In this document: positions 115 through 14,753 of the stretch, piece by piece
Position numbering within the stretch: position 1 is the first letter of the stretch
How the letters are laid out: each line of letters begins with the position of its first letter
Virus record (IMG/VR): IMGVR_UViG_2541047897_000004
DNA: 14,783 bases
Source of the DNA: a virus
Lineage: Duplodnaviria; Heunggongvirae; Uroviricota; Caudoviricetes
Reading direction: 5' to 3' (one strand)
Notes under the pieces: generated by a model
The model's input: only the letters and a program-made list of their open reading frames with translations
Database searches by the model: none
Told to the model about the DNA's origin: nothing
Made by a program: the position numbers and the translations under genes

Positions 115-190
115 GCCGATATAGCTCAGTTGGTAGAGCAGCGCATTCGTAATGCGAAGGTCGTAGGTTCGACTCCTATTATCGGCACCA
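115..190 (+). tRNA. thrW: tRNA-Thr (anticodon CGU)
   Basis: 76-nt cloverleaf read directly: acceptor stem GCCGATA/TATCGGC, D-loop AGTTGGTA, anticodon loop TTCGTAA with anticodon CGT (reads ACG), T-arm GGTTCGACTCC, encoded 3' CCA. Matches my recollection of enterobacterial thrW, a known integration site. Confidence 0.92.
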
Positions 191-192
191 TT
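172..192. repeat. attL-type direct repeat (3' end of tRNA-Thr, actcctattatcggcaccatt)
   Basis: 21-bp sequence identical to 13313-13333; overlaps the tRNA 3' end, as is typical for tRNA-targeting integrases. Confidence 0.85.
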
Positions 193-794
193 AAGAAAAT
201 CAATAACTTAGCTTAACTTCTCTAAGAAATTGTATCTTCTGTTATCACTTACAAACGCCTATACGTTGTTATGGGCTTTGGTAGTGTAACACGTATGGGC
301 GAGTAGTTCACAGGCTCAACCTCGTAACAAGTTCCTTTGAAGCTGGAAGACGTGCCACCGTCTCTAAACCTTCTACCAAAACTCTTAGCAAGATGTTCCA
401 CACCTGGCGCGGTGTCCAATGATGCTACACGTCGTGAGACGTTGCAGAGGATAAACAGGCTAAATGATGGGAAGAGTTTTAAGTGCATAGTGGATTAAAG
501 CCCACCTCTTCAAAACCTAACTTGATCGGGAAAGAATCAAGCTCTAGCACGGTTTCGTCCACCGGAGTACAACGGGTGCCTGATAAGAGAAGAACTGCTA
601 AGACTTCATAGCTTTTGTGAAAAAGCCCTTTTTAGTGGATACGCCTACGGCGCTTATTTTTTGGTATAACCATCAAAGGCGCTTTATGGCTCCTATTGTC
701 TTGAAAATGTATCTTTACTTGTATTGTGTTTTATGCGTAGCCTTCCTGTGTAGTATGTAACTTGTTAATTTTCATATGAATACAGAGGCACACG

Positions 795-947
795 ATGAAA
801 AACATTGCAGCTATCAAACGTAATAACCGCAAGATTCACGCTCGTAAGTTCCTGTCTACGCCAGAAGGAAAAGCCTGGCTAGAGCGTAAACAGCGAGAGA
901 ACGAAGAAAGAAAACTCCTTAGTGAGTTGAAATGGCTTAAGGATTGA
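795..947 (+). CDS. small basic protein, 50 aa (MKNIAAIKRNNRKIHARKF...), hypothetical
   Basis: ATG at 795 with GAGG 7 nt upstream; ORF below the 60-aa cutoff of the supplied track; lysine/arginine-rich. Function unknown. Confidence 0.35.
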   Translation: MKNIAAIKRNNRKIHARKFLSTPEGKAWLERKQRENEERKLLSELKWLKD

Positions 948-1013
948 ATCACCAGTAGGCGCATAACACATCCAGCGATCAAAGATGTGTTTATGCACCT
1001 GATAGTGAAATTA

Positions 1014-1172
1014 TTAAAGTCGTTTAGTTAACATCGCCATTGCTTGAGCAATAATTGCAACAGCGTCCATCTCTTCACTGGAAGCGATGCAAATGCGGTA
1101 ACTAATAGCCACAACGAATACATCAATAACGAGAAAGTGAATAGTGTGAAGATGTTTTGAAAGTAAATGCAT
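1014..1172 (-). CDS. small hydrophobic peptide, 52 aa (MHLLSKHLHTIHFLVIDVFVVAISYRICIA...), hypothetical
   Basis: ATG preceded by GGAGGA (4-nt spacer) on the minus strand; hydrophobic core consistent with one membrane helix; not in the ORF track because it is under 60 aa. Could be spurious. Confidence 0.25.
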   Translation of the reverse strand: MHLLSKHLHTIHFLVIDVFVVAISYRICIASSEEMDAVAIIAQAMAMLTKRL

Positions 1173-1512
1173 AACTTCCTCCGGTTTTACGATAGGAAGA
1201 TTAGAACATGCATTAAATGATGTTACAAGGGTGGTAATTTACCCTAATAGTCTACTATTCACCTCAATCTACGTCAACCAATATTTGATGTAGATTTAAT
1301 TTTCTTTTAAAAACAATGTGTTGCAATTTGTTGAATTTTGGGGTTAGGTTGTTTTTTGAACGTTTTCATCAAGTGTAAAGATACGTTTAGCCTTCATAGT
1401 GAGTTCAGTTACTGTCTTTTTCTCTGAAATCGGCGCAGACGTGATCAATGTTTAACGCGAAGATCAGCGGCGTCAGGTCCACGCAGCGACAATTCTCAAA
1501 TATCAGGAGGCA

Positions 1513-2064
1513 TTACGCTTCCTGCTCTTTCTTGATACGTTGCACCGTCTGTGTGCTGACACTGAAATCTTTTGCTACGCTCCGAATTGATCCACCATTC
1601 GCGAGAGCGGCAACAATTCCCGCTCGATCAATTGCTTTTCCATTACCACGTTTTGCTATACGTCCAGCGGCCTTAGCTGCGGCGATCCCCTCACGCTGCC
1701 GCTCAAGCATCATTTCACGTTCCATTTGTGCCACTGCTGCAAGCACTGTGAGCATCATATTCCCTGCGGGAGAGTTCTTCCCTGTCTTAAAGTCTTCTTT
1801 ATGGAAATGCACAGACACGCCGCGCTCTGTTAATTGCTCAACCGTTGCCAGTAGGTCGGCTGTATTACGGCAAAGTCGATCAATGCTGTGAACATGCAAA
1901 ACATCACCTTCACGCACATAGTTCATCATTGCCTCAAACTGTGGGCGCTGGGTATTCTTGCCTGACGCTTTATCTTCAAAGACTTTATCAAGAGTTACTC
2001 CAGCTAATTGACGGTCTGTGTTTTGTTGGACAGTCGATACCCTAATGTATCCAATATTAGCCAT
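1513..2064 (-). CDS. serine recombinase (resolvase/DNA-invertase family), 183 aa from the second Met
   Basis: N-terminal IGYIRVSTVQQNTDRQ catalytic-serine motif, DKASG, TVLAAVAQMEREMMLER and a C-terminal HTH (SIRSVAKDFSVSTQTVQRI), all hallmarks of small serine recombinases. AGGA lies 8 nt upstream of the second ATG (2064); the ORF track starts two codons earlier at 2070. Confidence 0.9.
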   Translation of the reverse strand: MANIGYIRVSTVQQNTDRQLAGVTLDKVFEDKASGKNTQRPQFEAMMNYVREGDVLHVHSIDRLCRNTADLLATVEQLTERGVSVHFHKEDFKTGKNSPAGNMMLTVLAAVAQMEREMMLERQREGIAAAKAAGRIAKRGNGKAIDRAGIVAALANGGSIRSVAKDFSVSTQTVQRIKKEQEA

Positions 2065-2593
2065 TTTCATTTTCCTTCTGTGTTGATTTGTGTGTAGTGA
2101 TTATTGATCGTGTTGATTAGGTGTGTAAAGGACTTTTTTCACTACGAAATTCGAAGGTTTTTAGTGTGGTGATTTAGCCTGCTTTATCACTACACGTCTT
2201 GCATGAGAATCATGTAGTTACATTTTGGTAAAATTAGCAAGCTATTAAATAGTGTGTTTATTTTGAAAAAATAATTTTTTGTTGCATTAAAGGAAACTTG
2301 TTCGACAAATAATAGATTGATTTTTAATCAACAATTTCTGATAGTGCTCTGTAAGCCGCATTACACAAGGCTTTGCGAAAGTGATGTAAAAGTGAAGAAA
2401 GTAAGAATTGCACTTTTAAGCTACTTTTCATTGAATTTTTAGTATGGAATTACATAAGGATTAATCATCAATTAATCTTGAATTTAAGCCTGTTTTAGAT
2501 GTTTAATTTTGGTAGCAAGAAACACTTTTAGAAGATCATTGCACAGATGTTATGTGATAAATGGATGTAACGGTAGGTCACTGTGAACTACCC

Positions 2594-2724
2594 CCACAGA
2601 ATTCTGTTATCCTTAACTTTTAAAGAAATATGCACCCTAACAGAAAACTGTTACCCCAACCCTAACAGAATTATGTTATACACCCCCACAGAAAACTGTT
2701 AGCCACCCCTACAGAATTTTGTTA
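2594..2724. promoter_or_regulatory. array of five 16-bp palindromic sites, consensus yAACAG-N4-CTGTTA (iteron/operator-like)
   Basis: Sites at 2594-2609, 2638-2653, 2663-2678, 2686-2701 and 2709-2724, each preceded by a C-tract (cacccc); centre-to-centre spacing 44, 25, 23, 23 bp; site 2 is a perfect palindrome TAACAGAAAACTGTTA. Confidence 0.6.
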
Positions 2725-2841
2725 CCTATTAGATCAACTATCAAACTACAATTAAATTATCTTTTATAAATTCTTTTATCTTTAAAGAATAATTATAGGG
2801 ATACCCGTTAGGGGAGTCCTTGACTATCCCTTAATCTATTG

Positions 2842-3215
2842 GCATTCGCCAGAACCTTGCACAAGTTAGAGTGTTAGTCGTTAGACTGCTTGTCATAACA
2901 CATAGTTTTTGTTTGTTGATGTTAGTTAGTAGATCTATGTTCGCTAATGCCGCTCACAACGAATATGTAATCTACTATGTGCAAATAGCCTACGGCTTGC
3001 GTAAGGCTAAATAGTCTTGCGCTGTGCGCAGAACGATAATTAACTAACTACCATCTAACGATTGAAATTTACTTGTGCAATAACCTGAGCGTAAGCGAAT
3101 GGTTGTTAGTGTCTATGCGCTGTGCGCTTCAATAGTTCCATTGATGAGGCTTACGCCAATCTAACGATCATCAATCATCTAAAATAAATTTCTTGTGCAA
3201 TGTTCTGGCGAATGC
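2842..3215. repeat. 24-bp inverted repeat pair (GCATTCGCCAGAACcTTGCACAAG at 2842-2865; CTTGTGCAAtGTTCTGGCGAATGC at 3192-3215) flanking a 326-bp segment
   Basis: The reverse complement of the left copy matches the right copy at 23 of 24 positions; the intervening segment holds a degenerate ~100-120-bp tandem duplication (gcgctgtgcgc, atctaacgat and cttgtgcaat each occur twice). Confidence 0.6.
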
Positions 3216-3695
3216 AATTAGAGTAGCGTTACCCCTTTGGGGATGCTAACGCATAACTATAGATCAACCATCAAACAGACAAAAAAGAAAAATATGGTTT
3301 AAAGATGTTAGGTAGTAGATGAGATTCTACCGCTTAAATCAAGCCGTAGGCGAGCTAAACGTATATAAGGCAGGGAAACACTTAGCGGTAATAGATTATC
3401 TCGTTATAGAGCTTCTGAGGAGCTTTACAGGTATTTTATAAGGTGTCTGAAATTAGAGTTAATCTATCATCTCCTTTTCATATACCTAACAAATACAAAA
3501 TAAGCCCCTTAAATAAGCCTCTGGCGAGCTAAACAGCCTCTACATAAGGGAATGTATTGTATTTATCAAAACCTCGTCAGAGGGCGTTTTAGAGCGTTTT
3601 AGAGAATAAGGAAGAATAGGAGTACTCGTAAGAGCACGAATTGCTAAGAAAAATTATAACACACTGAAAATGATCAATATTTTTATGGCTAGGGG

Positions 3696-3724
3696 TTGAC
3701 AAAAGCTTTTAGTCGTGGTAAAGT
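3696..3724 (+). promoter_or_regulatory. sigma70-like promoter candidate (TTGACA-17 bp-TAAAGT) for the small-protein operon
   Basis: Perfect -35 hexamer at 3696-3701, 17-bp spacer, -10-like TAAAGT at 3719-3724; about 120 bp upstream of the first ORF at 3848. Confidence 0.4.
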
Positions 3725-3847
3725 AATATTAGGGACAGAAAACATTCTTATCCTCTAAGTAATTAAACCAATGCACCGCACTTTGAAGCCCAACAAGGCT
3801 TGCAAGGTGTTTTTTCTTTTAACCAAATAGAATAAGGAGGCTAATTA

Positions 3848-4024
3848 ATGAAATATTTTACTCCACAGGATGTAGTTGAAGCCTGGAAACGTGGTGAGAT
3901 TAATCGTTTTAAAGTAAGGATGAACAGGAACACAGCGCGACGCTGTGGTTATCCAGAGCGTGAAAAATGCTTTGACGATGCACTAAAAATTATTGATGAA
4001 CTGCGTAAGGCAGAGAAAGAATAA
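3848..4024 (+). CDS. small protein, 58 aa (MKYFTPQDVVEAWKRGEINRFKVRMNRNTARRCGYPEREKC...), hypothetical
   Basis: ATG preceded by a consensus AAGGAGG 7 nt upstream; absent from the ORF track only because it is under 60 aa. Confidence 0.6.
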   Translation: MKYFTPQDVVEAWKRGEINRFKVRMNRNTARRCGYPEREKCFDDALKIIDELRKAEKE

Positions 4025-4045
4025 TAACAGGAGAAGGAGAAAACT

Positions 4046-4216
4046 ATGAGCGAAACTACAGAAAAGAAAAGACAACCACGCACTTGCTTTCATATTCCTG
4101 ATGAAGTATTTCAGGTGTTGTTTAAAGAAGCCAGAAGTAAACGTATCACTGTTACAGATTACATTCTTGATATGTTGAAAAGAGAGGCTGAAACACTCTC
4201 AAACAAAAGCAAGTGA
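4046..4216 (+). CDS. ribbon-helix-helix (CopG/Arc-like) DNA-binding protein, 56 aa
   Basis: GGAGAAGGAG upstream of the ATG; sequence RTCFHIPDEVFQVLFKEARSKRITVTDYILDMLKRE fits the beta-strand/helix/helix pattern of RHH regulators and antitoxins; under 60 aa so not in the track. Confidence 0.6.
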   Translation: MSETTEKKRQPRTCFHIPDEVFQVLFKEARSKRITVTDYILDMLKREAETLSNKSK

Positions 4217-4269
4217 TTTTTATCACCATAGTAGCGCCGTAGAGCGTGATTACATCAAGGAGATTTTTA

Positions 4270-4839
4270 ATGATTAATGAAGAACAATTTGTAAAAGTTC
4301 CTATGTGGATTCTAAAAATAAGCCAAGTAAACGGGCATAAATTTACAGATAGTGCTAAAAACCTTTACTGCTATTTGAGAGGGTTTGATCGTGCATTTCC
4401 CTCTTACGCTAAGATAGGCGATGTTTTTGGCATAACACCAAGAGCAGCAGAAGAAAGGGTTAAGAAATTGCTCGAAATGGGATTAATTATAAAAGATGCA
4501 CGACCAGGAAGCTCTAACCTTTATCGAGTGCTTGATATTCCAAAAGGAGAATCATCACTACCTGATCCTTCTGAGAAAGAAGACGAATCTAATGGAATAT
4601 TGAATGTTTCCGAAATCATCATTGAAGAAGAAACACAGGAATCAGAGTTCCCTGAGCGGCCCGAAATTTTTACTTGGCTTCTTTCCCTTGATAAGAAGAA
4701 ACCACCACACGAAGAAACAGAAGATTTTGTAAAACGAGCATTAGATTCAAAGAATATCTATCTTTGTGAAAATGATTTTGACTCTTTGATAATTGATCTC
4801 AAAAGTGAGAGCACAATATATGATTCACTACCCTTCTAA
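4270..4839 (+). CDS. winged-helix/HTH DNA-binding protein with acidic C-terminal tail (possible replication initiator or regulator), 189 aa from the ATG
   Basis: AAGGAG 6 nt upstream of the ATG at 4270 (the track's 4246 start is a GTG); N-terminal ...LYCYLRGFDRAFPSYAKIGDVFGITPRAAEERVKKLLEMGLI resembles wHTH domains of plasmid/phage replication-organiser proteins; C-terminus is rich in Asp/Glu. Family assignment is by eye only. Confidence 0.75.
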   Translation: MINEEQFVKVPMWILKISQVNGHKFTDSAKNLYCYLRGFDRAFPSYAKIGDVFGITPRAAEERVKKLLEMGLIIKDARPGSSNLYRVLDIPKGESSLPDPSEKEDESNGILNVSEIIIEEETQESEFPERPEIFTWLLSLDKKKPPHEETEDFVKRALDSKNIYLCENDFDSLIIDLKSESTIYDSLPF

Positions 4840-4848
4840 GGAGAATAA

Positions 4849-5118
4849 ATGACTTATAACATCACTATAGGAAACAAAACTATTGAAATAACTGAAAGCG
4901 GATACAACATTTTAAAATCTATTTTGGACATAGAGTTCTCACCCCCGACAGTGGTTAGCTTTTGTAGTTTAGGCGGCTACAGCGCACAACACGTGAATCA
5001 TTGGTTAAACCATTTTACATCGTTCGGTGTGCTGGATTATGAAGGGATTAACAGCACTACATTTCGTCTTTTGAAATTAAACAAAGATTTTGAATTGTTT
5101 ATCACAAACAATCAATAA
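4849..5118 (+). CDS. hypothetical protein, 89 aa
   Basis: AAGGAG 5 nt upstream of the ATG; co-directional and tightly packed with neighbours; no recognisable motif. Confidence 0.7.
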   Translation: MTYNITIGNKTIEITESGYNILKSILDIEFSPPTVVSFCSLGGYSAQHVNHWLNHFTSFGVLDYEGINSTTFRLLKLNKDFELFITNNQ

Positions 5119-5214
5119 CAACAGATCGGGCAATACATATGGCAAATGCATTTATGGCGATATTCATCGTAACTATGGCATTCAGTTTTTATAATCCACA
5201 TAAAAAGAGGGAAA

Positions 5215-5598
5215 ATGGGAAGAAAGAAAAAGAACAACTTAAAACGTATTGAAAAAAACAGTAATTTCAATTCAACAAGACAACGTCCACCGACACATAC
5301 CAATAACGAAATTCCAGGGGAAGAGATAATCTTTATTCTTGAAACAGAATCCCCTGAATTAAGTGATGAAGAATTAGAAATAATCCAATCAATGCCAGGC
5401 GTTTACTTTCGCCCAAGAACAAGAAAACAAACTATCATTTCTGATGGCACTCTGAAACGTTGGCAGCTTTTAGGGTTTAGCTCCTATCATCATTTTTTGG
5501 GATTTAACGCTTTCAATAATTGTGTAGGTGGTGCATCGGAAGTCGATCTGATGGCTCATTTAGAAGATACATTAGCTTCTAACAAACGTTCTAACTAA
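5215..5598 (+). CDS. hypothetical protein with basic N-terminus, 127 aa
   Basis: AGAGGG Shine-Dalgarno upstream of the ATG; N-terminal MGRKKKNNLKRIEK; no recognisable catalytic motif. Confidence 0.65.
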   Translation: MGRKKKNNLKRIEKNSNFNSTRQRPPTHTNNEIPGEEIIFILETESPELSDEELEIIQSMPGVYFRPRTRKQTIISDGTLKRWQLLGFSSYHHFLGFNAFNNCVGGASEVDLMAHLEDTLASNKRSN

Positions 5599-5655
5599 TA
5601 AAATGATGGGTGTATGTATAAGCGCCCAATGAAAATATTCGAAAAAGGAAAAATA

Positions 5656-5859
5656 ATGATTGGCTATATTCAAGAAACACAATTATTTCAGATGATCCTG
5701 TCTGATGCAAAAAACTATGCTGAGTTAATTCGGCTGGCAAAAGAAACAGAAGACTACGAAGCATTAGAGCGTTACCGTGATGAAGTGCTGACGCTCAAGA
5801 CACCTTTTAACATCGTATTGAATATGATTAATGATGCATTACAAGGAGAAGACGCATAA
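5656..5859 (+). CDS. small acidic protein, 67 aa (ORF extends to 5614 for 81 aa)
   Basis: AAGGAAA 5 nt upstream of the internal ATG at 5656; stop overlaps the next start (TAATG at 5857-5861), implying translational coupling; net negative charge. Confidence 0.6.
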   Translation: MIGYIQETQLFQMILSDAKNYAELIRLAKETEDYEALERYRDEVLTLKTPFNIVLNMINDALQGEDA

Positions 5860-6167
5860 TGGAAGAAGATATTAGCAATGCAATGGAACAACTTTTAGAT
5901 CTGACTATCTCACTACAAACAAGAATAAATCAAGCCTATTCAGATTTATGCGATTACACGCTCTCACAATGCGTTATTAGCTTAATGAAGGTGAATGTAA
6001 GCCTTGACGATTTTATCTCTCTGGTGAGCGATTTAGAGCTATCAGAGGACGATGCAAAACAGTGTAATCAAATCATCACAGACATCGCCACCACGTTAAA
6101 GGTTGCAAGTGAAGAGATTCAGCAATTAGTAGATGATTTAGCAAAAAGTGCTATTTTCTCTAAATGA
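5859..6167 (+). CDS. strongly acidic small protein, 102 aa (about 19 Asp/Glu versus 6 Lys/Arg)
   Basis: ATG overlaps the upstream stop; AGGAGA upstream; composition counted directly from the translation. Confidence 0.7.
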   Translation: MEEDISNAMEQLLDLTISLQTRINQAYSDLCDYTLSQCVISLMKVNVSLDDFISLVSDLELSEDDAKQCNQIITDIATTLKVASEEIQQLVDDLAKSAIFSK

Positions 6168-6443
6168 TAATGAAAATTATTTGCATTTATAATGATTTTG
6201 TTATATAATAATTTTAGGGGTAGATAAAAAGATTTTAGTTGGTGTTAATCCTTCTACTGTCATAAATCCCTGCATATGGAAGGTGATAGCCTCAAAGGTT
6301 GAGTGGCATTAACCTCTAACAAATATTACCTTCCATCTCTCAAGAAGTTTTAGAATAATCATAACTCCCTCTTTGATTGTTGATTGTTGATTGTTTCTAC
6401 GTTGTGTTGATGAATGTTGTTAGGCATTGTGCTTAATTTTGAT

Positions 6444-6490
6444 AAAAGCGGGTAGGTGTTATCTCCTTGCCCTTCCCGCTTTTATTTTTC
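6444..6490 (+). terminator. rho-independent terminator candidate downstream of the small-protein operon
   Basis: AAAAGCGGG (6444-6452) pairs with CCCGCTTTT (6475-6483), followed by ATTTTTC. Confidence 0.55.
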
Positions 6491-7028
6491 ATCTATGCTT
6501 ATCCTAAAGCTCCTTATTTTGTCCGAAAACATTAAAGAGCCTTACACTGATAGTTATATTTTATAACTATTTACTAACATCATTAAACTCTTATTTAATG
6601 ACGGAAGTTAGTAACAGAATAATCTATTAAGTTGTTGTCAAAAACAATCATCTGCATAGCGTTAGCCGCAAGCAGAGAGAGTTTAGCTAAGAATTGTGCA
6701 ATAACCTTTGGAAATATTGATAGCAAAACGGGTTTTATAGACTGCAAATCTATAATCTTTGGTTGTAAAAACGCTTTTTCTGAAACGGTAGATTATTGTT
6801 GGTGTAGTTAATTCTATTAAAATTTGATCTGTGAGTAGATGAGAATTGGAATAGTGATTCCTTAAAGCCTTACTTTGTTGCATCCACAGCAAAAACAGGC
6901 AGCGGTTAGCCACCGCACCCAGAATATCAGATCTTAGTGATTCCAGTGGCAAACTCCTAAGAGCCTTCCTTTCTAAGGTCTGATATTCACTCTTTAAGCA
7001 TATCATCAAGTATATTTAAAAAGTGTAT

Positions 7029-7056
7029 TTGCTGATATGTTTAATCCTCTTATAGT
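7029..7056 (+). promoter_or_regulatory. sigma70-like promoter candidate (TTGCTG-16 bp-TATAGT) upstream of the cargo block
   Basis: Hexamers read directly at 7029-7034 and 7051-7056; followed by a terminator-like hairpin (AAGCCCC 7091-7097 / GGGGCTT 7130-7136 plus T-run) in the leader. Confidence 0.3.
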
Positions 7057-7169
7057 TTAACTTATCAATTATGTAATTGCCCGCACGTTAAAGCCCCTTT
7101 GCTGGTCAGAATTAACCTCTTACGGCATTGGGGCTTTTTATTTGTCTGGCACTAACAGGAACGTTATTT

Positions 7170-7367
7170 ATGAAACAAGAAATGATTATCAGCAAAGACG
7201 GGGAAACGATGATTGTTAGTGATGAAAACCTCATTAAGGTTGCCGCACTGTTGGGAGTTACTCCCGAAAGTCTTCGTTCTACCACTGCTCAATTATTTAA
7301 ATCGGCTGATGCGGTTAGTCTTGCTGATGCCCTTAAATCTAAAATTAAACAACTGAAAGGAAAATAA
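7170..7367 (+). CDS. small protein, 65 aa, possible HTH (…LIKVAALLGVTPESLRS…)
   Basis: ATG at 7170 with AGGA 9 nt upstream; the track's longer form starts at a TTG (7128) that overlaps the leader hairpin. Confidence 0.55.
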   Translation: MKQEMIISKDGETMIVSDENLIKVAALLGVTPESLRSTTAQLFKSADAVSLADALKSKIKQLKGK

Positions 7368-7371
7368 TCTT

Positions 7372-7755
7372 ATGGCTAACCCATATGGAAAATTAAAAGC
7401 AGTGAATGCGGATAATTCCCGTTCACGCTGTAAGGTAGTAGCTTACGCTGCTGATCCAGTGCTGCAAGATCGCCTCGTCAAACTGGCTTCACCTCTCACT
7501 GACGATCTTATTGTCGGGGCTTTGCTGAAAGCCGATGGCACCAAAGCAACAACCGCATCTGATATTGCTCACGTAGTAGTTGAACCGGCTTATGAAGGAC
7601 AGGAAAGCGTAGTGGTTGCACATCCTACTTTCGTTATTCTGGCTGAAGATGGGATTGAATTTAACAGCATGGAAAAGGCAAGTGTTATTGCAAAACTGCA
7701 ATCTCTCGGCTTTGTAATTGCTGGTTATGAAGAACTTGCGATCCCTACGACTTAA
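7372..7755 (+). CDS. hypothetical protein, 127 aa
   Basis: AAGGAAAA upstream; 4-bp gap after the preceding gene. I compared it to lambda D and U type small virion proteins and could not confirm either. Confidence 0.8.
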   Translation: MANPYGKLKAVNADNSRSRCKVVAYAADPVLQDRLVKLASPLTDDLIVGALLKADGTKATTASDIAHVVVEPAYEGQESVVVAHPTFVILAEDGIEFNSMEKASVIAKLQSLGFVIAGYEELAIPTT

Positions 7756-7769
7756 CAAGGAAAATAATA

Positions 7770-8801
7770 ATGAATGATTTATCAACATATTTTGGCGTTA
7801 ATACTGCGGTAGTAACTCCATTTGCTTATGAGAATGCACTTAATACCCTGATTACTAATCTCGATCTGTTCGATGTGCAATATCATACAGAAAACAGCAT
7901 TCTTCTTACCGACCTGATTGATCAGTTTGTGCAGGTAGCTGGGGAAACCTCGCCTTACGCTCAAAGCGACTGGAACGCCTCTAAACGTCAGGAATGGTCA
8001 AACAAACTTTTCCAGATGAAACACGTCGGCAGTATTAACGCTGTTACTTCTCGTGACCTGGAACAATACAGCCGCCAATATCCAAACCGTTCTGATGCTA
8101 TGCTGGTAGCGGTTAATGATTTCTCTGAGGCTCATTACCGTTCACACGCAAACCGTGTTGAAGTGGATCTGATTACCGCGCTGCTGGGACTGAAAGTTGA
8201 ATCTGAATATGCCGGACAAGGTGATCTCGACTTCCTCGACGGTCAGGCTAAAACCACGGTACCCGCTATCGACTTTGCATCGACTACTGTTAACCCGTTC
8301 CTTGCTATTCGTAAAGCGGTGCGCTTACAGAGTGAAAAGCTGGGGTCTGGTCTTGCTGCAAAGCGAACTGGTGTAATTATCTTTGCTGCTGGCGCTGCTG
8401 CTGATGGTTTGTCATCTAACCCGCTGATCAGTGACATGGTGAAATATGCAGGTGATGCGAGTGCTACGGCCCTGTTTACCCGTATGGTTGATTCTAACCC
8501 AGCCTATGACTCTTTCCAGATTGGTGGGATCACTGTTATTGATGTGTCAATGTTTCCTGAGATTGTTGCTCACATCGGAGAGAACGGTTTCGCAATTGTC
8601 CCGGTAATGGATAAATCGGTACAGTGTTACCAGCTTCACACAGGCGTTGGTGTGCGTCATGCTGAGTTAGGTCAAGATGCCGTGTTGCATCACCAATATC
8701 TAATCAAGGATGAATTCCAATTCCCATCTGTGGTTACTGAGACATCTTATCTGCCAGTAAACAACATTCCGCAAGCTATCATCTTCGGATCTGCTGCGTA
8801 A
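7770..8801 (+). CDS. hypothetical protein, 343 aa (possibly virion-structural-like; unverified)
   Basis: AAGGAAAA upstream; long clean ORF with higher GC than the left half of the element (by eye); Gly/Ala-rich segment GVIIFAAGAAADG; no Walker A, HxH or other catalytic motif seen. Size and position are compatible with a capsid or major tail subunit, but I see no diagnostic motif. Confidence 0.8.
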   Translation: MNDLSTYFGVNTAVVTPFAYENALNTLITNLDLFDVQYHTENSILLTDLIDQFVQVAGETSPYAQSDWNASKRQEWSNKLFQMKHVGSINAVTSRDLEQYSRQYPNRSDAMLVAVNDFSEAHYRSHANRVEVDLITALLGLKVESEYAGQGDLDFLDGQAKTTVPAIDFASTTVNPFLAIRKAVRLQSEKLGSGLAAKRTGVIIFAAGAAADGLSSNPLISDMVKYAGDASATALFTRMVDSNPAYDSFQIGGITVIDVSMFPEIVAHIGENGFAIVPVMDKSVQCYQLHTGVGVRHAELGQDAVLHHQYLIKDEFQFPSVVTETSYLPVNNIPQAIIFGSAA

Positions 8802-8954
8802 TAAAGCATTAATAGACGATTCCCATCGTCTGGAAAATAAGGGTAAAGGGATTACCTAACCTGTAGGCGCAAATACAGTAACGAATCTCTTTGCCTTTTT
8901 TGTTTTTCTACTGTCTACAAACCCAAATAAAAATATATATGTGAGAGAAAACCA

Positions 8955-9152
8955 ATGAACACAGAAAATTCACAGGCATTAATTCTTAAGTCTGTAAAAG
9001 AACTGGCAGCTATTAGCGATGACTCAATAATCAATGTCAGTGCCTTATGCAGAATGCTTTCAATTGATGCAAATAATGTGCGGCAGCGTGTGTTTCAGAC
9101 TGGGTGCAGCACTTTTGAAGCAATTACATACTACTGTTCTAAAAAACAATAA
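8955..9152 (+). CDS. small protein, 65 aa, HTH-like (…INVSALCRMLSIDANNVRQRV…)
   Basis: ATG with GAGAGA upstream; helix-turn-helix-like segment; sits between the 343-aa and 633-aa genes. Confidence 0.55.
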   Translation: MNTENSQALILKSVKELAAISDDSIINVSALCRMLSIDANNVRQRVFQTGCSTFEAITYYCSKKQ

Positions 9153-9186
9153 CAAACAACAATCATAATACAGGGAAACAATTAGC

Positions 9187-11088
9187 ATGTTAGAAATTAG
9201 CGCCTCACGAATTAGTAATGTTGTGACATTTACCACTGATTTCAAGAGCTTACAGAAAGCTAAGAATGAAGTGGATAAGCTACAAAAGAAGATGCAGGGG
9301 ATCAAACCTGTGCAAGTGGCGGCAGCACGTCAGAAAGATTTACAGAGGCTGGGAAAAGAGATTCAGCGCCAGCATGATCAGCATGTTAAGCAGGCTGTTA
9401 AATCTGAGACACAGGCATCTAAAGCCAGCACTAAACAGAAGCTACAGGAAGCTAAAAACCTCGCTAAAGCACAGGCTAAACGAGCCTCAATTGCTGAAAA
9501 GGCAGAGATCAAGCGCCTTGCATCATATCGCCAGTTACAAGGCATCAAGAACAATTCCCGCTATGGCGAAGGGATGGATATTAAGAAATATCACGATGCT
9601 CTACGTTACATTAAGGAACAAACCCGCCTCTATGAATCCGGCGCTATATCGCAAGCGAAGATGAATGCCCTGATCCGTGACCGCATCACATTAGAAAGAC
9701 GAGCCGCAGCCGCTGCTACGCGTCGTAATGCTGCCGCTGGGGGGGTATATCCAGTTACTTCTAAGAAGCTCCACAAAGAAGGTGTTAGCGGCGGTGGCGC
9801 GTTAATGATGGGCGGTGTTGGTGGCATTATCGGCGGCGCTGCCGTTGGCTTAGGAAGTATGGCTGTATCCGCTGGAATGGAAAAAGCCCGTGAACGTATG
9901 GAATTGCAGAAGATGAGCGATCTGGTAGGTGCCGATAGCAATCAGGTGGCTGCAATGGTTAATTGGGGGAGGGCAAACGGTGTATCAAGTGCAAGCGCGG
10001 ACAAGACCACTGATAATATCAAAGACTTAAACGAACGCATTGGTCATCAAAGCCGAACTGCTGAATGGGATAGTAAGAAAAAAGAGTGGCGAGGCGGGGA
10101 AGGATCATTAAATGATATTCAGAATGCCTTTGCATGGAACAAAGATAAGATAGCTTCCTACCAGGGGCGACCGCTGCAACTCTTGCAAGACGTGGTGAGA
10201 GAAGGTGAACGCCGAGGAATGACTAAAGAAGCCATCATATCCCTGATCGAACCATTAGCAGACGATGCCAGCCATTATCTCAAGATGTTTTCCCGTGATG
10301 GGGAAGAGTTCCGTAAAACGATGGTTGATATGGAAAACAACGGGCAGCTACTGACAGAAGCACAGAAAGAGCAATATCGCGCAGCTAACAAGACAGCTAC
10401 AGCCTTTGACCGTCTGACAGATGGACTATCGAATCAGGCTATTTTGGGCTTCTTTGATGGCATAGCCAACATGCCAGCACTCAAACCGGAAGAAAGCAAA
10501 GCCTTACAGAATGCAGCTTATGGTGTTGGTGCATCGTTCGGGGATTTGGCTAAACAAGGCGCTGTATTACTGACCTCTATGACTTCTTACGGGAATCAAA
10601 TCACAAGCTGGATTAATAAACATCTTAGCCGTGGTGAGAATGATAACCGACCTGAGACACAAAAGGTTATGGACGCTGTTACAGATGGGGAATGGTCGCC
10701 ATCAACGATTATCAATGAAGGTATTCGTTATGCAACTGGACTCGATACGAAAGATGTAGGGCGTATTGTGCGCGGTGAGGAAACACAGTCCGGCGTTCCA
10801 GGGTGGTGGACTGATTTAATTAATGGCAATGCTAACAGCTACGGATCAACCCTTGTTGCACGTAAAGCAGAAGCCTATCAGCCGACTGTAAGCCTACAAC
10901 GTCAATACGCAACCCCTGTTAACGTGAATGCACAGGTTACGGTGCCGAGTGATATGATCTCTGTTAACGTCATCCCTAACGGTCCCGGCTTTCAGGATTT
11001 AATCCGCACTGAGATCAGAGCGAACAACAATCAGTTTAGTTCGAATCTGATTCTTAGCACGTTGTCAGGACAGAGTAGCGTTAACTAA
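9187..11088 (+). CDS. large coiled-coil protein with Gly-rich hydrophobic segment, 633 aa (tape-measure-like; unverified)
   Basis: N-terminal ~180 aa is K/Q/A/E-rich with heptad-like character; GGGALMMGGVGGIIGGAAVGLGSMAVSAGM hydrophobic glycine-zipper segment; no nuclease or ATPase motif. This architecture is common in phage tail tape-measure proteins, but I cannot confirm homology. Confidence 0.8.
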   Translation: MLEISASRISNVVTFTTDFKSLQKAKNEVDKLQKKMQGIKPVQVAAARQKDLQRLGKEIQRQHDQHVKQAVKSETQASKASTKQKLQEAKNLAKAQAKRASIAEKAEIKRLASYRQLQGIKNNSRYGEGMDIKKYHDALRYIKEQTRLYESGAISQAKMNALIRDRITLERRAAAAATRRNAAAGGVYPVTSKKLHKEGVSGGGALMMGGVGGIIGGAAVGLGSMAVSAGMEKARERMELQKMSDLVGADSNQVAAMVNWGRANGVSSASADKTTDNIKDLNERIGHQSRTAEWDSKKKEWRGGEGSLNDIQNAFAWNKDKIASYQGRPLQLLQDVVREGERRGMTKEAIISLIEPLADDASHYLKMFSRDGEEFRKTMVDMENNGQLLTEAQKEQYRAANKTATAFDRLTDGLSNQAILGFFDGIANMPALKPEESKALQNAAYGVGASFGDLAKQGAVLLTSMTSYGNQITSWINKHLSRGENDNRPETQKVMDAVTDGEWSPSTIINEGIRYATGLDTKDVGRIVRGEETQSGVPGWWTDLINGNANSYGSTLVARKAEAYQPTVSLQRQYATPVNVNAQVTVPSDMISVNVIPNGPGFQDLIRTEIRANNNQFSSNLILSTLSGQSSVN

Positions 11089-11161
11089 GTTTAACGATAA
11101 CTAATAATAAAGCGGGGGCAATATTTATTGCTTTCCGCTCATTACACAAGGATTAATATAA

Positions 11162-11818
11162 ATGGCTATCAAAGAAAGTCAGATCAACAGCACATCTAAC
11201 ATTAATACATCTAACAGCAAGGTTAAATCTGATAACGGATTTGCCATTATATGTAGCAACCTGAATAACGAGAATGCATCAACGATAGCCAGTTATAAAG
11301 CTATTACTTTTGACGCTGTTCCGGCAACTAAGGTTTCACGTTCTGCCGATGTTACATCGTATCCTGTGCAGGATGGTAATGATGTATCTGATAATGTCAG
11401 GATCAAGAATAATAAACTTATGCTTTCAGGCATTATTACAGAAACACCATTAGCATTACGTGGTGATATGCTATCAAGTGCAGGGGTGAACGGTAACAGG
11501 TGTTCACAGGCTATTGCTTATCTTGATGAAATAATGAATGCCAGACAGCCTATTATTGTAAGCACAGAGCATAAGACGTTTGATAATATGATTCTGACAG
11601 GCATTGACTACGAATATAAAACAGAATCAGCTTTACAGTTTGATTTGCAGTTCGAACAGATAAGATTAGTGAGTTATGCAACTACTAACGCTATTGCTGT
11701 AAAGACCGCATCACCTAAGAGCACAGGCGGACAGGTAAAAAGCCAAGTGCCAACCAATGCAGGAACAGCCAGCACCACTAAAGACACCCTTCCGACGTAT
11801 GACGGAGAAGTGAAATAA
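11162..11818 (+). CDS. hypothetical protein, 218 aa (possibly tail-associated; unverified)
   Basis: AAGGA upstream; Ser/Thr/Asn-rich termini; follows the 633-aa gene in the position a distal-tail protein would occupy if that gene is a tape measure. Confidence 0.75.
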   Translation: MAIKESQINSTSNINTSNSKVKSDNGFAIICSNLNNENASTIASYKAITFDAVPATKVSRSADVTSYPVQDGNDVSDNVRIKNNKLMLSGIITETPLALRGDMLSSAGVNGNRCSQAIAYLDEIMNARQPIIVSTEHKTFDNMILTGIDYEYKTESALQFDLQFEQIRLVSYATTNAIAVKTASPKSTGGQVKSQVPTNAGTASTTKDTLPTYDGEVK

Positions 11819-11852
11819 TCCCTATAAAGAACGATGTAGCGAGATAATCATA

Positions 11853-11888
11853 AAAGAGGCTACCAATCTATATTGAAGCCTCTTTATT
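11853..11888. terminator. bidirectional hairpin terminator between convergent genes
   Basis: AAAGAGGCT (11853-11861) pairs with AGCCTCTTT (11877-11885), 15-nt loop, T-run after; lies between the stop of the 218-aa gene (plus) and the stop of the integrase (minus). Confidence 0.55.
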
Positions 11889-11892
11889 ACGT

Positions 11893-13170
11893 CTATAGCG
11901 TTGTTTTACGCCTTAAATTTGATTTTTTATTGATTGATAAGCCTTTCTCTATTTCAGGGTAGCGTAAAAGCTCAATATATTTTTTAAGCTCTATTGGAGA
12001 AGCTGCATTTTTGCTATATGTGCGGAATGTTTCTGTATTGCCGCGTGTATGGCCCAGGAGAAGGGCGATCCTGTCTTCTGGAATTTGATTTCGATCAAGA
12101 AGCTGTGCTACTCCGTGTCTCAGAGAATGAAACACCTTCCTTTCTGTTCCCTTTTCCCCTAAAGCCTTTCGTTTAGCTCTTGTAAATCTCTGCGTATGCC
12201 ACGTGGAACGTTTACCATCAGCACGCTCTGTAATGCTGGCGTGATAGAACAAAAAGCCATTGTGAGGCTTTTCACGCAGCGACAACACCAACGGAGTGAT
12301 AAGGCTATGCACAGGCACAAGACGTGCCGCAGCTTTCGTTTTTCCCTGTGTGATTTCAAAACACAGCACACCTTCGATCTCTTTCACATCGTCTATTGTG
12401 AGACTTGCTATCTCATTGATCCGCATACCTGTATATAAACCGATAAGACACAAAGCCATCATTTCTTTGTTTTCTGCTGAATTACCGGAAAATACTTGCA
12501 ACACCTGCAATAGCTCTTTGTTAGAAAATGCCTCGTAGCTCTCTCTACTTTGTGCCACATCAAGCCTATGCCCTCGCCAGGGGGAGAGCGCCCTTTCTGG
12601 CGCATCGTGGTAACGTGATGAAGCTAATTCCCATAGCTGGGCCATTGGGCTGATATAATTTGCAATTGATTGTTGTGAAAGAGTTTTTTGCATGTGTTCA
12701 ATCCAGCCTGTAACAGTGGTGCGGCTTACATCTTGCAATGCAATATCAGGCTTTTTACGGTAGGAGAGAAACATCTCTACCGCTTTTCTTGCCTTAGCTA
12801 AAGTGGCTGGCTTCTTCTTCGTGCTGTTAATTGTCAGGTAGATTTCAAGAATTTTAAGCAATGACGGACACGAAGACGCTGTATCTTGCATTCTGGTAGC
12901 TGTTTTGGCGTATTTAGCCTTACTGCGTAACAGTTCCAGCGTGTTTTCTATTGTGCTGTTTACAGGGGCAACACTCTCCCGTAAGCAATGGTATTCATCT
13001 GCAATCTGATCACGCTTTCTACGTGCAACACGAAGATTACTTGTGTGCAGACTTCTGACAAACGTCCTTTTTCCTTCAAAAAAGGGCTGCATATACACAG
13101 GCAGCGTGATCCTTAAATAGTAGTTACCGTAAGAATCACAGATTAAGTATTGGTTAGGCTTGTATCTCAT
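11893..13170 (-). CDS. tyrosine recombinase / phage-type integrase, 425 aa from the RBS-supported ATG
   Basis: C-terminal catalytic region with HSLRHGVAQ and LLGHTRGNTETFRTYSK (R/H/R/Y tetrad pattern); adjacent to the right att repeat. GGAG lies 5 nt upstream of the ATG at 13170; the track's longer ORF starts at a TTG (13257) with no Shine-Dalgarno. Confidence 0.9.
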   Translation of the reverse strand: MRYKPNQYLICDSYGNYYLRITLPVYMQPFFEGKRTFVRSLHTSNLRVARRKRDQIADEYHCLRESVAPVNSTIENTLELLRSKAKYAKTATRMQDTASSCPSLLKILEIYLTINSTKKKPATLAKARKAVEMFLSYRKKPDIALQDVSRTTVTGWIEHMQKTLSQQSIANYISPMAQLWELASSRYHDAPERALSPWRGHRLDVAQSRESYEAFSNKELLQVLQVFSGNSAENKEMMALCLIGLYTGMRINEIASLTIDDVKEIEGVLCFEITQGKTKAAARLVPVHSLITPLVLSLREKPHNGFLFYHASITERADGKRSTWHTQRFTRAKRKALGEKGTERKVFHSLRHGVAQLLDRNQIPEDRIALLLGHTRGNTETFRTYSKNAASPIELKKYIELLRYPEIEKGLSINKKSNLRRKTTL

Positions 13171-13312
13171 AAAATCTCCGGCTAAAGTGTCGGAGCGTTT
13201 GTAATGTGAAAATTGATTGTGACGCATAGAAAATGATGATTTTTCTATAAGATTCAATCAATTAGTAATGGTCGTAGGTGATGGCATTAACACGAGATTA
13301 ATCGAGTGTTTT

Positions 13313-13333
13313 ACTCCTATTATCGGCACCATT
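13313..13333. repeat. attR-type direct repeat (partial tRNA-Thr 3' end)
   Basis: Exact 21-bp copy of 172-192; a further 10-bp tRNA match (ggtcgtaggt, 13270-13279 versus 159-168) lies upstream, separated by a 33-bp insertion. Confidence 0.85.
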
Positions 13334-13485
13334 CTAACGTCTCCCCAAGTCTACTCAAGTATTTAAAAACCTCTTATAATCAGTATATTAATGCCCCTTT
13401 TAGTCTTTTGACGTCTATTTAAGTACCCCAAACTCTACAAGCAATTGAGGGGATTTGCTGTTCAGTTTAGTGGAGATACCCCCAA

Positions 13486-13824
13486 GTGAAACTCAATGCC
13501 CGTCAAATAGACACTGCCAAGCCAAAAGAGAAGGCTTACAAGTTGGCTGATGGTGGTGGTCTGTACCTCCTGGTAAAACCTGGTGGAGGAGAATATTGGC
13601 GTCTCAAGTATCGTGTAGCTGGTAAAGAGAAGCTGTTAGCACTAGGTGTGTATCCTGAGGTCACCTTAGCTGATGCTCCTGCAAAACTTGAAGAAGCTAA
13701 AAGAGGTATCTCTGGGGGAATCGATCTGATGGAAGTGAAGCGAGAGGAAAAGATTGCCCGGGAAACGCAGTTAAACAACACCTTCAAAGATATTGCCCTT
13801 GAGTGGCACAGTAACAAATTATAA
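13486..13824 (+). pseudogene. truncated N-terminal fragment of a P4-type (tRNA-associated) integrase, 112 codons
   Basis: Translation …ARQIDTAKPKEKAYKLADGGGLYLLVKPGGGEYWRLKYRVAGKEKLLALGVYPEVTLADA… matches the conserved arm-binding N-terminus of P4-family integrases as I recall them; the ORF stops after 112 codons with no catalytic domain and AT-rich non-coding DNA follows. Confidence 0.7.
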
Positions 13825-14258
13825 TCACAATAATAGTGTATATAATTATACATTGTATGCTTGGTAATCATATAATGATAAAAGCTTCCGATAATCAGTA
13901 TGAGATTTGTCCTTAAACTCCTAGACATGCTTTTCTAAATCTTCCAATGGTATATGTCCATTTATACAAATAAAATTCTAGTGATAAATACCTTCAGGTA
14001 TGATTAGACAACATCTTTATTCGATGGGGGTTAATCTATATTTGATATCTTTCTTTTAAATAACAACGCCATTAAAAACGCTTTGTTTAATGACGTTTTT
14101 TTATTGTTTCCTGTATAAAGCCTAACCAGCATAAACATTGGTGGCTCTTATGCTCATTGTAATTAAATGAGAGTGTGATTAATGTCTTTATATATTCAGG
14201 TAGTTATTCTCTCCAGAAGAATACATTGTAAGAAGATGACTGTTAGTATGTTTTAACA

Positions 14259-14753
14259 TCAATTAACATTAAGGTTTGATAATAATTTTTTGTTGGCGAG
14301 TTCAAATGTTTTCATTTCATCATCTGATAGCCCGCTCCAGATTTTCTTTAGCATTACATTTTGAGTGTTTATTAGTTTTTGAGCAAGTGTAACTCCGTCA
14401 GGGGTTAAGCAAATACTTTTGCTTCGACGATCGTTTTTATTATTAATTCTTTTGGCAATATTCTTTTTTTCTAATTTGTCTATGATGTGTGTGATGTTTG
14501 TTTTGGAGAATTGTAACTCCTTGTAAATATCAGAAGGGGACTGACAATAATCATCAGACATATATAATGAAACTAACACCATAAATGTTGAAGTGTTTAT
14601 TCTATACTCGCTCAATTCATTTTCTATAATACTCTGGATTTTGTCATTTACTCTAATATATAAGTGTATTAACAGACTCTCCTGAGCCGGGTATGCCGGA
14701 TTTTTGATTTTTTTGTAGTTTGTTATAGTTTTTAATAAATCTATATTATTCAT
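14259..14753 (-). CDS. MarR-family winged-helix transcriptional regulator (PapX/SfaX-like 17-kDa type?), 164 aa from the internal Met
   Basis: Wing motif …RINNKNDRRSKSICLTPDGVTLAQ… (DRR…LT..G) typical of MarR regulators; the ORF is open to the window edge at 14783, so the true start could be upstream. The PapX-like subfamily is a recollection, not verified. Confidence 0.75.
   Translation of the reverse strand: MNNIDLLKTITNYKKIKNPAYPAQESLLIHLYIRVNDKIQSIIENELSEYRINTSTFMVLVSLYMSDDYCQSPSDIYKELQFSKTNITHIIDKLEKKNIAKRINNKNDRRSKSICLTPDGVTLAQKLINTQNVMLKKIWSGLSDDEMKTFELANKKLLSNLNVN

Follow-up and report, generated by a model that had tools for sequence, protein, structure and literature searches.

At the right-hand junction of an integrative element in Escherichia coli, homology to the threonine tRNA gene thrW is broken in two, and a truncated integrase gene lies just beyond it. 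This locus raises the question of whether the broken homology was left behind at thrW by successive integrations or belongs to one of the elements. We addressed it in a stretch of 14,783 nucleotides from a virus record assigned to the Caudoviricetes (IMG/VR IMGVR_UViG_2541047897_000004), referred to here as the window. A preliminary description, made from the letters and their open reading frames, had taken the junction for a footprint of serial integration at one tRNA. Its claims of two elements, a hotspot, and a truncated integrase stood; its claims that the footprint is local and that only a stub of the older element is left did not. The explanation that we regard as highly probable is that two elements are stacked at thrW of an extraintestinal-pathogenic-type E. 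coli and that the region is the boundary between them.

The window begins just downstream of proA with thrW, the gene for tRNA-Thr(CGT) (115..190, plus strand; ARAGORN; Rfam tRNA, 71.8 bits), which is annotated likewise in E. coli genomes and is the bacterial attachment target. An Rfam scan of the window passed only thrW; with a permissive threshold, 13100-14300 returned a sub-threshold Thr_leader match (14059-14170, 26.9 bits against a 55-bit cutoff). An exact 21-bp direct repeat, ACTCCTATTATCGGCACCATT, is composed of the last 19 nt of thrW plus TT. It occurs exactly twice in the window, where shuffled sequences gave an expectation of none, and it is the unique such pair. The left copy (172..192, plus strand; attL core) covers the last 3 nt of the T-loop, the 3' side of the T-stem, the 3' side of the acceptor stem, ACCA, and TT. 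The right copy (13313..13333, plus strand) is the attR core of the 13-kb element, and in element-free strains its bases form the 3' end of thrW and abut the older island. The spacing of the two copies is 13141, both are identical to the tRNA 3' end, and thrW is regenerated intact.

The sequence between the repeats is the body of the 13.1-kb integrative element (193..13312; 13,141 bp with one repeat copy). Pfam and PHROG analysis revealed that it encodes a DNA invertase, an O-like replication initiator (iterons at 2585-2727), head-like, tape-measure-like, and Dit-like proteins, and a tyrosine recombinase. The recombinase gene (11893..13170, minus strand) encodes 425 amino acids from the RefSeq start, with an open reading frame that extends as far back as a TTG at 13257. 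A gap of 142 nt separates the RefSeq start from the right-hand repeat to its right, and the gene points inward, into the element. The protein is comprised of DUF6538, SAM-like, and catalytic domains (Pfam PF20172, PF13102, and PF00589). It is intact, with all catalytic residues present, and R250, K277, H348, R351, H374, and Y385 were invariant in an alignment of eight family members. None of the small open reading frames of the element matched an excisionase family. A kinship of the element with CP4-6 of K-12, with which some strains share downstream context, was considered and rejected: IntF is just 24% identical to the recombinase, within the catalytic domain only, and the right end of CP4-6 in K-12 carries uninterrupted tRNA homology.

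In order to determine which element arrived first, a synthetic empty site of 450 nt was assembled in which thrW is joined directly to position 13334 onward. It was 100% identical over all 450 nt to the chromosomes of CFT073, Nissle 1917, ATCC 25922, S88, IHE3034, and many others, and approximately 906 records covered at least 80% of it. Because these genomes carry the stub and vat directly behind thrW at a site identical to the reconstructed one, the 13,141 bp represent a later and precise insertion. Of the two, the stub-vatX-vat module was resident first, with the 13-kb element as the newcomer, and the claim that at least two elements used thrW at different times is borne out by the roughly 900 genomes, CFT073 and Nissle among them, that join the tRNA to the stub. 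The newcomer's place in the order is as expected with integration occurring at the intact tRNA. A search of viral and metagenome contigs for the excised circular junction (P arm, core, P' arm) found none, an absence from assemblies that does not show immobility. The sole viral-contig match to the circular-junction query was the right end of another element abutting the left end of the 13-kb element. From the empty sites and the varied downstream contexts described below, and from these only, we infer that the 13-kb element is still mobile; we likewise infer the exact crossover point within the repeat.

Further inspection of the right junction revealed a second piece of tRNA homology. The 10-mer GGTCGTAGGT (13270..13279, plus strand) corresponds to the variable loop, the 5' side of the T-stem, and the first base of the T-loop. 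Exactly two copies are present in the window, one inside the tRNA (159-168) and one at the junction, against 0.01 copies expected from shuffles, and two copies were seen in 0 of 200 shuffles. Strand and order at the junction are the same as in the tRNA, but the gap between the 10-mer and the repeat piece, which is 3 nt in the tRNA (TCG, in the T-loop), is 33 nt at the junction. The preliminary description had placed the 21-bp repeat, the further 10 bp, and the 33-bp gap at the right coordinates; it had also positioned the T-arm piece correctly while giving its letters as a "ggcgtaggt" type, when they are in fact GGTCGTAGGT and span the variable loop as well. The 33-bp spacer that takes the place of TCG (13280..13312, plus strand) contains an imperfect palindrome, AACACGAGATTAATCGAGTGTT (13289-13310), that is unique in the window. 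An alternative alignment matches 26 nt at 92% identity (GTTttACTCC... against GTTcgACTCC...), under which the interruption would amount to 30 bp and two substitutions. A third and weaker stretch of tRNA-like sequence, GCGTTTGTAATGTGAA, at approximately 13195-13210, resembles the anticodon arm and is marginal (P of approximately 0.03).

To establish whose sequence the 43 bp of 10-mer and spacer are, copies were collected from E. coli genomes and from viral-contig collections. GGTCGTAGGT, 33 nt, and the core were identical in 23 of 23 copies, and these always adjoined the integrase of the 13-kb element. They were followed by at least five unrelated downstream sequences, which included the stub, K-12-like yagP/paoD, the ends of P22-like prophages, and others. 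One variant lengthens the left tRNA piece to AAGGTCGTAGGT. The 33-mer was sought in viral contigs outside its GGTCGTAGGT-core setting, as a clue to its origin, and none was found. A thrW gene interrupted by the 33 bp, the reciprocal product of a crossover at the 10-mer, was present in 0 of 5426 genomes, and the empty sites that join thrW to the stub held no trace of the 43 bp. The interval from the integrase start to the core (13171..13312) is the P arm of the 13-kb element's attachment site and lies on the element side of the crossover; as the crossover falls inside the 21-bp repeat, all sequence left of the right-hand repeat derives from the site of the incoming element. The 10-mer and the 33-bp spacer are thus part of the 13-kb element's own attachment site and not a local scar. 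The view that they record serial integration at this spot fails, since the 43 bp travel with the element, being tied to one integrase end and absent from the empty sites, and have a homologue in a Citrobacter-type relative. The varied downstream contexts could in part be due to other elements that inserted later at the second core, and even then the 43 bp would remain within the excisable unit.

The course of events that we favor begins with integration of the vat island, whose P4-family integrase gene, at a distance of 152 bp from the end of the tRNA, precedes vatX and vat. A deletion removing all integrase sequence after codon 112 then immobilized the island. The 13,141-bp element, with its unrelated DUF6538-type recombinase, integrated later and site specifically through a crossover probably located within the last 19 to 21 bp of thrW. 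This insertion regenerated the tRNA at the left and displaced the old tRNA 3' end, along with the stub, to the right end, and the 10-bp match and 33-bp spacer were brought in with the attachment site of the younger element. The attP of the excised circle is accordingly predicted to read P arm, GGTCGTAGGT, 33 bp, core, and AAGAAAATCAAT. The palindromic insert may bind an accessory recombination protein or a regulatory protein upstream of the integrase gene. With all sequence left of the right-hand repeat coming from the younger element's site, the split homology would be a vestige, within that site, of a longer segment derived from a tRNA.

The comparison with relatives of the recombinase is consistent with this notion. 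In the Citrobacter-type relative, whose integrase is approximately 55% identical, the arm reads TGCGAAGGTCGTAG, 35 nt, and then ACTCCTATTATCGGCACCA (ACTCC...). Its overall length equals that of the E. coli arm, TGCGAAGGTCGTAG occupies the place of the 10-mer, and the insert is homologous: 19 of the 22 positions of the palindrome AACACGAGATTAATCGAGTGTT are conserved, whereas the flanks are only 44 to 50% identical. The integrase family yielded 870 hits at an E value below 1e-20. Related DUF6538-type integrases whose arms contain tRNA homology were found in Citrobacter, Klebsiella, and Enterobacter, and in several of them the homology is split by palindromic inserts of 31 to 40 bp. Some of these relatives have thrW split in the anticodon loop, where AGCGCATTCG is followed by approximately 40 nt (CAATGAC...GTCATTG) and then by CGAAGGTCG...ACCA. 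Others have leuX split in the anticodon loop, with (GCAG)TTGATTCAA(A) followed by 31 nt (GCTTGC...GCAAGC) and then by ACCGTAG...ACCA. Further relatives carry uninterrupted tRNA pieces of 38, 62, or 72 nt. On these alignments, the 10-mer is best read as the vestige of a once longer tRNA-derived arm segment with a palindrome-bearing insert in the T-loop, and the interruption is best read as older than the separation of the E. coli elements from the Citrobacter-type ones.

Two E. coli genomes, FDAARGOS_1300 and VTB96935v, carry the element with a genuine TCG instead of the spacer, and in VTB96935v three core bases are also missing. The integrase end of VTB96935v is nested within the diversity of the spacer-bearing copies, and judged from this position the no-spacer forms look secondary. 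If they are, exchange with genuine tRNA sequence must happen now and then on the spacer's left side. Nested forms of this kind also mean that a vestige of longer ancestral homology is not the whole story.

One reading that would go further is that the palindromic insert is a putative site for an accessory or regulatory protein (the integrase, an excision factor, or a repressor) that has been kept by selection. The insert would then lie in the integrase promoter region, and the left tRNA piece would serve as an extra integrase-binding site or as an alternative crossover site. We hold this to be possible, if short of probable. The 19 of 22 conserved palindrome positions argue for it when set beside flanks of 44 to 50% and integrases of approximately 55% identity, as do the inverted repeats in the inserts of other lineages, which include one compensatory change (CAATGAC/GTCATTG against CAATAAC/GTTATTG). 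The rare no-spacer variants, in turn, imply that exchange occurs left of the spacer. The integrase start lies 142 nt from the core, so the promoter must overlap the arm. The KplE1/HK620-type modules show such an overlap of integrase promoter and attachment arm (Panis et al. 2010, PMC2951348), and comparable KplE1 arms hold operators for the integrase and the excision factor (PMC2951348). The likeness to KplE1 lies in an integrase gene that adjoins the attachment site and points away from it, which forces regulatory and recombination sites to share the arm. The difference is that the arm described here was read from sequence alone and yielded neither a promoter-like site nor an excision factor.

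Other results weigh against such a role. Searches for a promoter, a terminator, and single-strand folding at the junction gave nothing above background; the spacer contained no promoter-like site, and its folding was no better than that of shuffles. The element holds no second copy of the palindrome and no recognized excisionase. The no-spacer variants appear to be integrated, which argues that the insert is not essential, and the conservation is known from two lineages. Within E. coli, the invariance of the spacer was not significant as a sign of constraint, as approximately 21% of 33-column windows of the integrase region were also without a variable site.

A broader form of the idea takes the arm of DUF6538-type elements in general as a copy of the target tRNA that is split by design (the 5' half of a stem plus the first loop bases, a palindromic insert of 31 to 40 bp, and the identity block), the split itself being functional. 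We advance this tentatively and rate it somewhat unlikely. Its possible functions are an operator or accessory-protein site that couples integrase expression to recombination, or a second and rarely used exchange point; the latter, if real, would explain the rare variants in which the insert is swapped for genuine tRNA sequence. A literature search for DUF6538 returned no papers, and no description of split tRNA homology across the family was found. Split tRNA homology that recurs across the family around a conserved palindromic insert is the only unreported detail that we found, and its significance is uncertain. If functional, split tRNA homology would add variation to how tRNA-targeting attachment sites are built.

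The edge of the spacer invites a different explanation. The spacer ends in GTGTTTT directly before the ACTCC core, and the viral contigs contain 36 right-end junctions of other thrW elements that bear this signature, in the form (C/T)TGTGTTTT[A/G/T]CTCCTATTATC(G)GCACCA. It is also present in the P4-like satellite of FDAARGOS_1300, and P4 itself has GATGTTT beside its core. The spacer could accordingly be a tip captured from the end of another element; alternatively, the signature could stem from a convergent requirement beside the core. Taken to its full extent, capture would mean that spacer and core together are the right-end tip of another thrW element, P4 type or similar, which was fused in an ancestral tandem array to an older site truncated in the T-loop, the chimera having been carried along since. 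This is unlikely, in our judgment, even though the 36 right ends, the satellite, and P4 all point toward it and the integrase relatives with uninterrupted long homology indicate that an interruption event must have occurred. Just 7 nt are held in common, and for the remaining 26 nt no counterpart was seen among the right ends recovered. At this place, GTGTTAC stands in the Citrobacter-type arm, and GTGTT may be half of the lineage's own palindrome. Moreover, a separate fusion would be needed for each of the splits that other lineages have in other loops.

To the right of the junction lies the integrase stub (13486..13824, plus strand). It begins with GTG 152 nt after the right repeat and consists of 112 codons and a stop created at the breakpoint 13821/13822. 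Pfam analysis matched it to the whole of Arm-DNA-bind_3 (PF13356, positions 1-83 of 83, E value of 9e-24), the integrase domain model NF007246 also matched, and alignment with residues 5-116 of the phage P4 integrase gave 56% identity (E value of 1e-34). An intact relative is found at the same position in FDAARGOS_1300, where a 404-amino-acid integrase is 92% identical to the stub over residues 1-112. DNA homology to its gene ends exactly after codon 112 (13821/13822), and TAA comes next. This relative has three domains (arm binding, central PF22022, and catalytic PF00589), the same three Pfam domains as the P4 integrase, to which it is 43% identical end to end. The core-binding and catalytic domains are missing from the stub, which is a gene fragment and not a functional member of the P4 family. 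RefSeq annotates it as a pseudogene missing its C terminus. The description of this open reading frame as a truncated P4-family integrase of 112 codons with a GTG start was therefore well founded in its domain content, its P4 similarity, and its homology breakpoint. Strain 536 and FDAARGOS_1300 have the identical stub before vatX, suggesting that the truncation is old and occurred once. A minus-strand open reading frame at 13536-13928 (130 amino acids) was taken as spurious because it overlaps the stub and has no family match.

The sequence between the right repeat and the stub (13334..13485, plus strand) has the geometry of a P4 attachment site and is the decaying P' arm of the older P4-type island. 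Core and start are 152 nt apart here and 151 nt apart in P4; in both, the T-loop is where the core begins, and arm repeats lie between core and start and over the start. The repeat overlapping the start codon is conserved (TACCCCCAAGTG here against TGCCCCCAAATG in P4). Compared with the intact satellite, a 12-nt deletion has removed one TTGGGGGTA repeat, one of two tandem arm-type repeats, and the tandem TTGGGGG repeats of P4 and the intact relative are reduced to one mutated copy at the stub. By these changes, the remnant arm is decaying along with the gene. The two systems differ in that P4 targets leuX whereas the stub element targets thrW, and in that the stub is cut after codon 112 with one arm repeat deleted.

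It could be argued from the preserved start codon and complete arm-binding domain that the 112-amino-acid product is retained as an arm-binding protein in its own right, one that modulates related P4-type integrases when they arrive at thrW. The stub matches a PHROG family of short proteins strongly (phrog_3423, E value of 1e-49), the same stub is kept in hundreds of genomes, and its pN/pS relative to the intact relative is 0.24, a value that says little, since the divergence arose mostly before the truncation. Conserved positions of the stub carry nonconservative changes (R to P and R to L), however; its own arm repeats are decaying, and vertical inheritance with vat explains its wide presence. 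We consider a retained protein very unlikely.

The older element has kept more than its integrase stub. The gene vatX, which encodes a MarR-family regulator of vat (14259..14753, minus strand; Pfam MarR; RefSeq), is its first cargo gene and lies inside the window. Many complete E. coli chromosomes match the right-hand 1.7 kb of the window at 100% identity; their sources are extraintestinal isolates from humans, dogs, and poultry, with APEC O1 and O2 strains among them. FDAARGOS_1262 and APEC O1 are two strains with the arrangement seen in the window. The RefSeq annotation of the matching chromosomes gives the order proA, thrW, approximately 12 kb of mostly hypothetical genes ending in the recombinase, the integrase pseudogene, and the MarR-family gene; these are followed by vat, IS1 remnants, a second integrase fragment (the third integrase of the locus), and yagU. 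The prediction that the locus is a hotspot with cargo beyond the stub and the window is thereby supported. The statement that the older element has been reduced to an integrase stub is not, with vatX and vat still present and IS1 remnants extending up to yagU.

In its position between proA/thrW and yagU and its possession of vat and vatX, the locus corresponds to the VAT-PAI. This island was reportedly described from avian pathogenic E. coli Ec222 by Parreira and Gyles in 2003 (GenBank AY151282). It is placed between proA/thrW and yagU, with 33 open reading frames of which vat is ORF27 and the MarR-type VatX is ORF26 (PMC6956023), and it is also listed as PAI-APECO1-thrW, of 20 kb (PMC7545054). 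Locus, MarR-type vatX, vat, and overall size (approximately 20 to 22 kb) agree. The difference is that one island of 33 open reading frames is described (PMC6956023), whereas we find a 13.1-kb element next to an older stub-vatX-vat module, and this module stands alone in CFT073-type strains. The locus, the process, and the integrase pseudogene are already known and the vat island is published; the finding of serial integration as originally stated changes little, since it re-identifies that island at a textbook integration hotspot. What emerges is that the "22-kb VAT-PAI" is a composite of a vat module fixed by the loss of its integrase and a separate 13-kb neighbor, which is apparently still competent and comes and goes between strains. 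This composite nature matters where presence of the island is used to mark virulence or lineage.

At the same tRNA, the stacks of other strains differ. FDAARGOS_1300 has three elements in tandem: the 13-kb element, with its integrase destroyed by an IS3-family insertion sequence; the intact P4-like satellite, which carries methyltransferase, DUF262, and HEPN genes; and stub-vatX-vat. In strain 536, PAI III lies before the same stub, and its right end bears an uninterrupted 47-bp thrW fragment. In K-12, CP4-6 occupies thrW, with a tRNA fragment of approximately 49 bp at its right end. These tandem tRNA arrays resemble the present one in that entry at the intact tRNA pushes older elements and tRNA fragments outward, and PAI III536 further resembles it in sitting before an identical stub-vat module at thrW; they differ in having other integrases and in the uninterrupted tRNA fragments at their right ends. 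The thrW gene of E. coli accepts at least four unrelated integrase types, and the order of the stack varies by strain. The 47-bp and approximately 49-bp pieces, and the degenerate third core beyond vat described below, indicate that tRNA fragments do build up at such hotspots, but the notion that the 10-mer and spacer were left here by an earlier integration and excision independent of the 13-kb element is effectively refuted already and scarcely credible, because element-free genomes join thrW to the stub without any trace of the 43 bp, the 43 bp stay attached to the element's integrase end whatever comes next, and another genus has a homologous split arm.

The preliminary description had also proposed a search for a third copy of the 21-bp repeat downstream of the window. 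A core was found at the far end of the island, beyond vat and the IS1 remnants, as a degenerate copy (TATTATC-----CATT) and not as a further exact repeat. This third core directly precedes a left arm and a 3' integrase fragment that, by comparison with other loci, apparently derive from a P22-like prophage.

The right junction of the 13-kb element, the 13,141-bp insertion at thrW, was found to carry the genuine tRNA bases TCG in place of the 33-bp spacer (13280-13312) in 2 of 5426 genomes. These spacer-less variants map to positions 26730-26790 of loci L005/L006 and 16001-16060 of locus L007, and in both of them the left junction reads ACCATC, whereas that of the window reads ACCATT. A diverged copy of the element's integrase end (approximately 5 to 7% different) is present in E. 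coli MB46 (L003, NZ_CP073958.1). Homology between this copy and the window stops at position 13266, where srsR/scpC fragments adjoin and no thrW core is seen. The arrangement suggests that the MB46 junction underwent rearrangement or deletion.

In E. coli FDAARGOS_1300 (L006, NZ_CP069996.1, 885000-930000), thrW carries a stack of three elements. Between the other two lies an intact P4-like satellite, which encodes a 404-aa integrase, AntA/B, an Icd-like protein, and a primase; its distal end holds a cluster of DNA methyltransferase, DUF262, and HEPN-like nuclease genes that looks like a defense-gene hotspot. The older thrW resident, the vat island, has its distal limit marked by a third, degenerate copy of the 3' end of thrW (TATTATC-----CATT; L001, 27420-27601), approximately 6.5 kb to the right of the window. 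Past this copy lie what looks like the arm of a P22-like prophage and a 3' integrase fragment. The L001 strain therefore holds the remains of at least three integrase families.

In a large class of other thrW-integrated elements (viral-contig loci L059-L145), the end consists of AAAACACAG, approximately 27 nt, and CTGTGTTTT, followed directly by ACTCCTATTATCGGCACCA; this forms a perfect 9-bp inverted repeat adjoining the core. The integrase of this class was not found within the flanks examined at these loci. At the right end of CP4-6 in K-12 (L029, 37185-37215), the arm beside the tRNA fragment reads ATGCATTAACA, compared with ATGGCATTAACA in the window spacer (13281-13293), a likeness that may reflect chance or common ancestry of attachment arms. 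Immediately to the right of the left repeat, window positions 198-210 (AATCAATAACTTA) fit the IHF consensus, WATCAANNNNTTR. In relatives (AATCAATGACTTG) as well as in P22-like arms (AATCAATAAGTTA), similar motifs adjoin the tRNA homology.

The 13-kb element contains four to five iteron-like repeats (ACCCNNACAGAAAACTGTTA; 2585-2727) approximately 1.5 kb upstream of a gene (4246-4839) for a 197-aa protein matching O-like replication initiators; after excision, it probably replicates autonomously. Three further products are encoded within 7770-11818. One, of 343 aa, is head-like (a weak PHROG match; a single genome has it annotated as major capsid protein); the others, of 633 and 218 aa, are tape-measure-like and Dit-like, respectively. 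Genes for terminase, portal, or lysis functions were not recognized in the element, which could represent either a degraded prophage or a kind of phage satellite that has not yet been described.

Downstream of vatX, the Rfam model of the threonine operon leader matched the minus strand at 14059-14170 below threshold (26.9 bits; cutoff, 55 bits); the match probably represents only a terminator-like hairpin.
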